DNA of 64,000 nucleotides, from assembly GCF_003334405.1 (NCBI RefSeq), contig NZ_QOWM01000002.1. One strand, given 5' to 3'. Both the position numbers and the translations under genes were made by a program. The first letter of the stretch is position 1; the number at the start of each line of letters is the position of its first letter. The notes beneath the pieces are model-generated. The model ran no database searches and was not told the DNA's origin. It saw nothing but the letters and a program-made list of their open reading frames with translations. The stretch comes from Escherichia coli. Lineage in GTDB: Bacteria; Pseudomonadota; Gammaproteobacteria; Enterobacterales; Enterobacteriaceae. Below are positions 48,197 to 50,352 of this stretch, piece after piece.

Positions 48197-49008
48197 TGCT
48201 ACGCGAGTGTGATTACAGCCAGGCGCTGCTGGAGCAGGTGAATCAGGCGATTAGCGATAAAACGCCGCTGGTGATTCAGGGCAGCAATAGCAAAGCCTTT
48301 TTAGGTCGCCCTGTCACCGGGCAAACGCTGGATGTTCGTTGTCATCGCGGCATTGTTAATTACGACCCGACCGAGCTGGTGATAACCGCGCGTGTCGGAA
48401 CGCCGCTGGTGACAATTGAAGCGGCGCTGGAAAGCGCGGGGCAAATGCTCCCCTGTGAGCCGCCGCATTATGGTGAAGAAGCCACCTGGGGCGGGATGGT
48501 CGCCTGCGGGCTGGCGGGGCCGCGTCGCCCGTGGAGCGGTTCGGTCCGCGATTTTGTCCTCGGCACGCGCATCATTACCGGCGCTGGAAAACATCTGCGT
48601 TTTGGTGGCGAAGTGATGAAAAACGTTGCCGGATACGATCTCTCACGGTTAATGGTCGGAAGCTACGGTTGTCTTGGCGTGCTCACTGAAATCTCAATGA
48701 AAGTGTTACCGCGACCGCGCGCCTCCCTGAGCCTGCGTCGGGAAATCAGCCTGCAAGAAGCCATGAGTGAAATCGCCGAGTGGCAACTCCAGCCATTACC
48801 CATTAGTGGCTTATGTTACTTCGACAATGCGTTGTGGATCCGCCTTGAGGGCGGCGAAGGATCGGTAAAAGCAGCGCGTGAACTGCTGGGTGGCGAAGAG
48901 GTTGCCGGTCAGTTCTGGCAGCAATTGCGTGAACAACAACTGCCGTTCTTCTCGTTACCAGGTACCTTATGGCGCATTTCATTACCCAGTGATGCGCCGA
49001 TGATGGAT
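48196..49008 (+). pseudogene. glcE: glcE, 3'-truncated (first ~271 codons only) at an island deletion junction
   Basis: Reads as GlcE through ...LPGTLWRISLPSDAPMMD, then continues into unrelated sequence that is antisense to an antigen 43 fragment. Intact GlcE is 350 aa. Confidence 0.8.
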
Positions 49009-50352
49009 TCCCTGGGCCACAATGTCAGCCCACAGGCCGGAGGCGTTGTGTATCAGATTCAGGTATCCGCCCAGGCTGCCGGCATCATCCCGGACCGTGC
49101 CGGCACGGGAGCCGTCATCATCCTTAACATCAACGGAAGAATGGCCAGCAGCACCATATACCCCCGCGGTCACAGACATACCGGCAACCTCTGTTCTGAG
49201 CAGGTCACCCTCCAGACGGACGAAGCCATAGCTGCCGCTGCTTTCCGGCGTGGCTCCACGGGCAATACCGCCGTTGTTATCGTGACCGAGATGACCGCCC
49301 TGAATGCTGAGACGGACGCTGTTATTTTCACCGCTTACACCGGTCTGATGGCTGCGGGAGCCTGCCAGAATCCGGTCATAGTCCATTGCCTGTGTCAGCA
49401 TGGAGGCATACAGGGGGACTTCTGCACGATAAGCATTTTCACTGCGCAGATACCAGCTCTCATCACTGTCCCGGTTGAGGGAGTAGTTAAAGGCACCGGC
49501 CTGCAGCTTATTCCCCTGGACAAAGGCCCCTTCCTCCGTGGTGGCACCGTTAATGGCTTCCACCACCTGAATACCCTTACCGCTGGTCGCCAGCCCCGAC
49601 GCACTGTTGCCGGCGTTCACCAGGTTCAGGATGGTTTTTCCGGTTGCCCTGCCACCGTCAATGACCAGTCTGTCAGCATTGTTCTGTGCCATATCCGGGC
49701 GTACACGCAGGCTGATGGTGCCATTCTGTCCGTTCAGGTTTTTCACTTTCAGGGTTGCCGGTACGAACTTCCCTGTGCGGGTGGAGGTGAAATGAATCTG
49801 TCCGGCATGGCTGAGGTCATCCACCACCGACTGCACCGTGGCGTTATCGGGAATATTCCAGGTGGCACCAGAGGCGAGAGTGACATTCGTGGGGTCAATG
49901 GCACCGTTCAGCACAGTGCTGCCGGTCAGCTTCAGGGCTGTACCGCGCTGAGCAATGACATCCGTGGTGACGGTACTGTCGTTCAGCGTCAGCGTGCCTT
50001 CATTCAGGTTGACGGCTTTCTGGGTGAGTGTGGTGTTGCTGACAGTGAGTGTGCCACTTCCTGATTTTTCCACGCTGCCGTTACCGGTGAGAGAGCCTCC
50101 CTGCAGGAGTGCATCGCCTTCACGGATGGTCAGGGTATCGTTGTTCACCGTCTTCCCGGAAAGGGTAAGTATGGCGCCGTTATTCAGCGTGGTGGTGCCC
50201 GCCAGTGTGCCGCCCCTGGCGGTGAACAGTCCGCCATTTACCGTGGTATCCGTGGCCGTATCACCGGCGTTCAGCGTGAATGAACTGCCTTTTTCCAGCA
50301 TCAGGGCATCCGCCTGACCGCCTCCGATACTGAATGCCTTTCCGTCGCTCCG
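49006..50352 (-). pseudogene. flu: Internal fragment of an antigen 43 (Flu)-type autotransporter adhesin
   Basis: Translation matches the Ag43 passenger/autochaperone region (about residues 415-860). No signal peptide, no N-terminal passenger and no C-terminal beta-barrel. A frameshift is visible near 50300-50330 (KAFSIGGGQA in a different frame). Confidence 0.85.

Follow-up and report, generated by a model that had tools for sequence, protein, structure and literature searches.

A doubly truncated agn43 remnant fused to glcE at the edge of a pheV island in Escherichia coli

Antigen 43 (Ag43), the product of agn43 (flu), is cleaved between residues 51 and 52, where the signal peptide ends, and between residues 551 and 552, where the passenger ends, with a 330-aa translocation unit that consists of the alpha-linker and the barrel (PMC10058404). 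A genome-wide survey of Ag43 comprised 9988 sequences, 7336 of them full length, and pooled incomplete copies (carrying frameshifts, premature stop codons or insertions) as pseudogenes (PMC10058404). The many incomplete copies in this survey imply that decayed agn43 copies are commonplace. The copy described here lies in a 64-kb stretch of the E. coli chromosome which reaches from parC to yqgA (hereafter the window) and is, judged from its sequence, an agn43-derived fragment and not a functional member of the Ag43/Cah family. It is an ordinary pseudogene remnant of an already known kind, which is unusual solely in its double trimming and its fusion to glcE: whereas the pseudogenes of the survey are disrupted by a frameshift, a stop codon or an IS element (PMC10058404), the copy in the window has been trimmed by deletion at both ends and is fused to a chromosomal operon of the housekeeping type.

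The agn43 gene of strain C3 (CDS of 3120 nt, 1039 aa) served as reference and the intact allele of MIN12 (NZ_CP069657.1, JSU14_RS03870) as a second comparison. Both are identical to the window over nt 1191-2539 of the gene, which corresponds to positions 49008-50356 on the minus strand (1349/1349 bp, no mismatches and no gaps in pairwise alignment and blastn) and contains the complete codons 398-846 of 1039. In a megablast search of 48900-50500 against 5,426 complete E. coli genomes, positions 49005-50356 fell within annotated agn43 genes of thousands of genomes with 99.9% identity, and agn43 was found to be a multi-copy gene with a median of two matching places per genome. The homology of the fragment to agn43 is unambiguous and far beyond chance. 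This identity confirms the original prediction that an internal piece of Ag43 lies on the minus strand, and the extent of 49006-50352 given there lies within 2-4 bases of the true joints. Full-length Ag43 matched the whole window only with aa 398-849, leaving no further piece of the gene (tblastn), and neither a signal peptide nor the end of the barrel was found anywhere in the 64 kb (blastn, tblastn). The genes yeeR and yeeP, the natural neighbours of the intact agn43 genes of MIN12 and C3, were not found in the window either, so that the fragment, unlike these genes, stands without them. When MIN12 5501-42001, a stretch that covers the 5′ region of agn43 as well as the intergenic DNA upstream of it, was compared with the window by blastn, the agn43 part was limited to nt 1191-2542 and the remaining matches were 78 bp of glcE and two repeats of ~35 bp. 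The missing upstream regulatory region is presumably the Dam/OxyR phase-variation switch.

Full-length Ag43 is matched in Pfam by ESPR (PF13018) at residues 6-49, AIDA repeats at 98-457, AC_1 at 573-690 and the PF03797 beta-domain at 765-1015. With the boundaries given in PMC10058404, the fragment holds residues 398-551 of the passenger (52-551), i.e., its C-terminal 154 aa. These are followed by residues 552-846, which comprise the autochaperone in full, the linker and, from the PF03797 barrel region, the initial ~82 residues (about a third); the linker helix was recognized by eye as AYRAEVPLYASMLTQAMDYDRILAG. The original prediction, which described the central part of the passenger only and no beta-barrel, is therefore imprecise, as residues 398-551 alone belong to the cleaved passenger. 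Searched alone, the fragment matched AIDA, AC_1 and Pertactin in Pfam. The AC_1 domain (PF18883) is complete, as model positions 1-114 of 114 aligned to fragment residues 176-293, equivalent to Ag43 573-690 (E=9e-19). PF03797 yielded no Pfam match on the fragment alone, which stops at residue 846 of a domain spanning 765-1015, and ESPR (PF13018) was absent from the fragment (Pfam) as well as from the entire 64-kb window (tblastn). The NCBIfam model auto_Ag43 (NF033177) was matched with E=6e-186 and 620 bits; this score stays below the equivalog cutoff of 1200 bits because the sequence is partial, with 449 of 1039 residues being present. Lost from agn43 are nt 1-1190, with the promoter, the ESPR signal peptide and the self-association region of AIDA repeats, and nt 2540-3120, with most of the barrel. 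Without a signal peptide, a self-association region and about two thirds of the barrel, the fragment can neither be exported nor act as an autotransporter, in line with the earlier expectation that a product with neither a signal peptide nor a complete translocator cannot be exported (Pfam, tblastn). A scan for consensus promoters and terminators around the fragment gave counts no higher than in shuffled sequence.

It had further been proposed that the fragment carries a frameshift near its 5′ end, and an alignment to intact agn43 alleles had been named as the check. This alignment is gap-free and identical, and together with the continuous frame from the joint it rules out a frameshift or indel at 50300-50330. 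Translated from 50400 downwards, the Ag43 frame reads VIC, a stop codon and PERV, and continues across the joint with TRSDGKAFSIGGGQADALMLEKG. Past the joint (codon 398 = 50355-50353) it runs without a stop codon through the ATG at 50301, and the TGA that closes it, at 50368-50370, belongs to the foreign sequence of the vasL side, four codons upstream of the joint. The program-called ORF starts at 50301 because this is the first ATG after the joint. The resulting ORF of 439 aa (48982..50301, minus strand; ORF list) begins with MLEKGSSFTLNAGD (MLEKGSS...), lacks a signal peptide and ends with IHHRRITG and a stop codon within antisense glcE; it was called identically in the Logan assembly of ERR1948962. 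On the plus strand, a chimeric glcE′ ORF of 622 aa (48196-50064; ORF list) consists of GlcE residues 1-271 followed by 351 open codons antisense to the agn43 fragment. It was also called in other assemblies, where gene callers list it as a gene encoding an FAD_binding_4 domain (NCBI GCA_024592615.1, Logan assemblies). Both ORFs are artefacts of the deletion scar, and a pseudogene flag is due.

The left neighbour of the fragment, which the original prediction had missed, is a truncated chromosomal glcE (48196..49009, plus strand), which is cut after codon 271 of 350. It is 100% identical to other E. coli glc operons up to 49009, and residues 2-271 align with positions 2-276 of the 358 positions of the NCBIfam GlcE equivalog profile. 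At the left joint (49008..49009), glcE nt 814 meets agn43 nt 2539. In the three-way junction alignment the glc match stops at 49009 and the exact agn43 match begins at 49008, which leaves a 2-bp overlap, TT. On the plus strand, GATGATGGATT is followed by TACCC in glcE and GGCGGGTT by CCCTGGGCC in antisense agn43, while the window joins GATGATGGATT to CCCTGGGCC. At the right joint (50352..50356), agn43 nt 1191 meets a remnant of vasL with a 5-bp overlap, GGGTA, the agn43 match stopping at 50356 and the vasL-side match starting at 50352. Here, CGCTCCGGGTA precedes CCACTG in agn43 and CAGAGTGGGTA precedes ACCCTTT on the vasL side, while the window reads CGCTCCGGGTA followed by ACCCTTT. Neither joint exhibited an IS element, a recombinase site or inserted bases in the three-way alignment. 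Among 400,000 random deletion joints simulated on the real sequence, overlaps of at least 2 bp arose with P=0.16 and overlaps of at least 5 bp with P=0.006; the TT overlap at the left joint does not exceed chance expectation. The direct joints, the absence of IS elements and the overlaps of 2 and 5 bp suggest RecA-independent illegitimate recombination of a microhomology type.

The order of genes across the scar is glcC (minus strand), glcD and the truncated glcE, the agn43 fragment (minus strand), and then the vasL remnant, a hypothetical gene of 376 aa, qatABCD, a CBASS-like pair (minus strand), IS remnants, int (minus strand), pheV (minus strand) and yqgA. Between positions 1543 and 32549, the window matches NCTC9100 over its parC-pitB stretch with 99.987% identity. 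The vasL remnant (50352..50827, plus strand; PF12486) is the 3′ end of a T6SS gene with a VasL domain and is 100% identical to an annotated “VasL domain-containing protein” of A14, BS74R-D and others. It is already fragmentary in related islands, and the copy in the window is shorter still, by 49 nt at its 5′ end. In relatives, the pheV island contains scattered pieces of T6SS genes (fragments of the ImpA N-terminus and of the VasL domain; BS74R-D, L003 16391-18471), of which the window keeps the last 476 bp of vasL. The integrase of the island, a tyrosine recombinase (61081-62406, minus strand), was assigned by identity to the annotated BS74R-D island, and the tRNA-Phe gene pheV (62541-62616, minus strand) was identified with ARAGORN. 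Together, positions 49010-62540 form a pheV-island remnant of ~13.5 kb that is anchored at its pheV end and carries the agn43 fragment at its far edge. Apart from one difference in repeat number, 50352-62700 is 100% identical to the pheV islands of BS74R-D, NCTC9100 and others. A second copy of the 25-nt pheV 3′ end was not found in the window with up to 3 mismatches allowed, which means that the distal direct repeat is absent. This absence fits a far border that was deleted along with the stretch from the glcE 3′ end to yghD.

This small island contains two defence systems. A QatABCD anti-phage system is complete (52328-56887, plus strand), with full-length matches in PADLOC and NCBIfam. Beside it lies a second defence system, a CBASS-like pair (57440-59351, minus strand) of an oligonucleotide cyclase of 442 aa (PADLOC, E=9e-177) and a 2TM/SLATT effector of 191 aa (E=2e-82). 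Between this pair and the integrase, remnants of IS66-family and IS4-family transposase genes occupy 59486-61000 (identity to annotated BS74R-D). Directly upstream of qatA, the hypothetical gene (ORF 51066-52196, plus strand), which weakly matches PD-Lambda-4_B in PADLOC (E=4e-6), contains a perfect 9-bp tandem repeat, TTGCTGAGG, at 52048-52108, encoding (AEV)n. The window has 6.8 copies of the repeat, whereas the island of BS74R-D, identical in other respects, has 38.8 (L003 19692-20040), and a short-read contig of ERR4578754 breaks exactly at it.

Intact islands show where an agn43 gene would be expected in such an arrangement. In MIN12, the glc side reads glcD-E-F-G-B-A, sslE, pppA, gspS2, gspC-L and yghD, after which an island module follows with DUF4942, DUF957, DUF5983, cbtA, yeeU, DUF987, JAB, antirestriction, DUF932, DUF905, IrmA, a yeeR-like gene, agn43 (minus strand) and the GTPase gene yeeP (minus strand). 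The MIN12 island is of the same type and sits at the same tRNA, and its agn43 points to the glc operon as in the window, thus lying on the same strand relative to glc and pheV. In GmM062, an Ag43 module is followed ~36 kb further on by the ImpA′ and vasL′ fragments, the hypothetical gene and Qat, all within one pheV island and in the order and orientation of the window. GmM062 was considered as a relative with both the island and this agn43 allele intact; its allele is divergent (85% identity over the 3′ part), and it serves as an architectural model only. No genome was found that combines the exact agn43 allele with this Qat island and could be the immediate progenitor. The collinearity of the window with intact islands is shown by these comparisons.

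Very probably, the fragment is a non-functional remnant of a resident agn43 gene of the pheV island which was left by two collinear deletions. The gene would originally have been located in the distal module of the island (...cbtA-yeeU-...-IrmA-yeeR-agn43-yeeP) and transcribed towards the glc operon. The left deletion would have run from within chromosomal glcE to agn43 nt 2539. As the left neighbour is a truncated glcE, this deletion leaves the island and removes about 32 kb, or 32,057 bp in the coordinates of MIN12, which would be its size if the progenitor resembled that strain. On the chromosomal side it would have taken the glcE 3′ end, glcFGBA, sslE, pppA and the T2SS-beta operon, and within the island the distal module together with the final 193 codons of agn43. 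The right deletion would have extended from agn43 nt 1191 upstream to the already decayed T6SS vasL remnant, taking some island cargo along with the regulatory DNA of agn43 (promoter and phase-variation region), its signal peptide and the portion of the passenger that mediates self-association. Both deletions may have been RecA-independent events of a microhomology type. That there were two events rather than one, and by which mechanism they arose, is what the two joints suggest. The view that the island carries a former adhesin locus with both deletion endpoints visible is upheld.

It seems improbable, by comparison, that glcE was brought next to vasL by one large deletion and that a 1.35-kb piece of agn43 from elsewhere was captured as repair filler. 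Short overlaps at both joints would suit such a capture, and donors would have been at hand, as many strains have identical agn43 alleles elsewhere on the chromosome. The presence of the same allele at other chromosomal sites (e.g., at ~1.9-2.0 Mb; megablast, complete E. coli genomes) also means that allele identity is no proof of an origin in the pheV island. In addition, the closest relatives with the same Qat island (BS74R-D, NCTC9100 and A14) have an island without any agn43. However, the strand of the fragment and its place between the glc and pheV sides are those of native agn43 in pheV islands, and two simple deletions account for everything with no extra assumptions. Taken alone, this collinearity would make decay in place about twice as likely as a captured fragment. 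To our knowledge, capture of kb-sized filler is not usual in E. coli, which is without classical NHEJ, and this counts further against it.

The relatives that lack agn43 provide a parallel to the two deletions proposed for the window. BS74R-D and NCTC9100 contain the identical Qat island, but there pitB′ is joined to yghD and scraps of the distal module (′cbtA/DUF5983) are kept. A14, which has the same neighbourhood and the same 100%-identical Qat/pheV island as the window, differs in that sslE′ is joined to DUF5983′. The respective border deletions are located at L003 1239-3222 (BS74R-D), L008 29610-31593 (NCTC9100) and L002 3201-7373 (A14), and each of the three strains has lost tens of kb across the border of chromosome and island. 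These are evidently independent events and do not reflect shared ancestry, agn43 having been lost independently. Different deletions at the same border in near-identical relatives suggest that this border, with pitB-glc-sslE-gsp on one side and the island on the other, is deletion-prone.

A role for which the remnant might have been kept, either as a source of antisense RNA against intact agn43 paralogues or as a recombination donor for the shuffling of alleles, appears very improbable. As the glcE′ ORF continues without interruption into antisense agn43, where it stays open for 351 codons, transcripts of the glc operon would run antisense through the remnant. Those from the glycolate-inducible glcD promoter through glcE′ could, on this hardly probable account, yield an RNA of 1.35 kb with perfect complementarity to the transcript of any intact agn43 paralogue; the sole nearby terminator-like site on the plus strand, which is weak and within chance expectation, lies inside glcE′ (48791-48811) and thus upstream of the joint. 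If this antisense reading were true, Ag43-mediated aggregation would be coupled to the availability of glycolate. Alternatively, though with equally little likelihood, the remnant could be a silent donor cassette for module shuffling, as shuffling of Ag43 modules is known (PMC10058404). The fragment is free of mutations, which would fit a retained function, but a recent deletion would show no divergence either. Moreover, there is no evidence of expression or selection, and the allele is rare, being found in a handful of samples and in 0 of 5,426 complete genomes.

The allele was found elsewhere by exact-protein look-ups of the two ORFs. The 439-aa ORF was found in run ERR1948962, on a Logan contig which is 100% identical to 48847-50966 and spans both joints, and the 622-aa chimera occurs on seven contigs. 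Among the latter, an NCBI draft (GCA_024592615.1) and the Logan contig of ERR4578754 match the window with 100% identity over both joints, and the Logan contig of SRR3823652 ends at 50135 and therefore covers the left joint only. In all, about 8-9 samples contain the allele. Neither joint was present among the 5,426 complete E. coli genomes, where the best matches listed by megablast span the agn43 part only; any genome that had one of the joints would have ranked above the matches listed. That the joints are assembly artefacts, i.e., a chimeric join at a gene with a median of two matching places per genome, of the repetitive kind at which misassembly classically occurs, could be suspected from their absence among complete genomes, but this explanation is effectively refuted, as both joints adjoin unique sequence (glcE, vasL) with overlaps of only 2-5 bp and recur with 100% identity in one NCBI draft and two separately assembled Logan sets, the left joint also in a third. 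Identical joints in independent assemblies indicate a lineage-specific allele and no misassembly, and this allele defines a small lineage.

From the established functions of the lost genes, this lineage is predicted to be incapable of glycolate utilisation, since glcE is truncated and glcFGBA, and with them the glycolate oxidase/malate synthase G pathway, are gone. It would likewise lack SslE and T2SS-beta and would produce no Ag43 from this locus. Nothing about the agn43 remnant challenges current understanding. The scar matters for annotation, as the output of gene callers at this site is either an “AIDA/pertactin” protein of 439 aa or a GlcE chimera of 622 aa labelled “FAD-binding”, and for strain history, as about 32 kb of chromosomal and island DNA is missing from the lineage and the two unique joints of the scar are usable as lineage markers. 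Together with the differing deletions in close relatives, it illustrates how prone to deletion the distal edge of pheV islands is.
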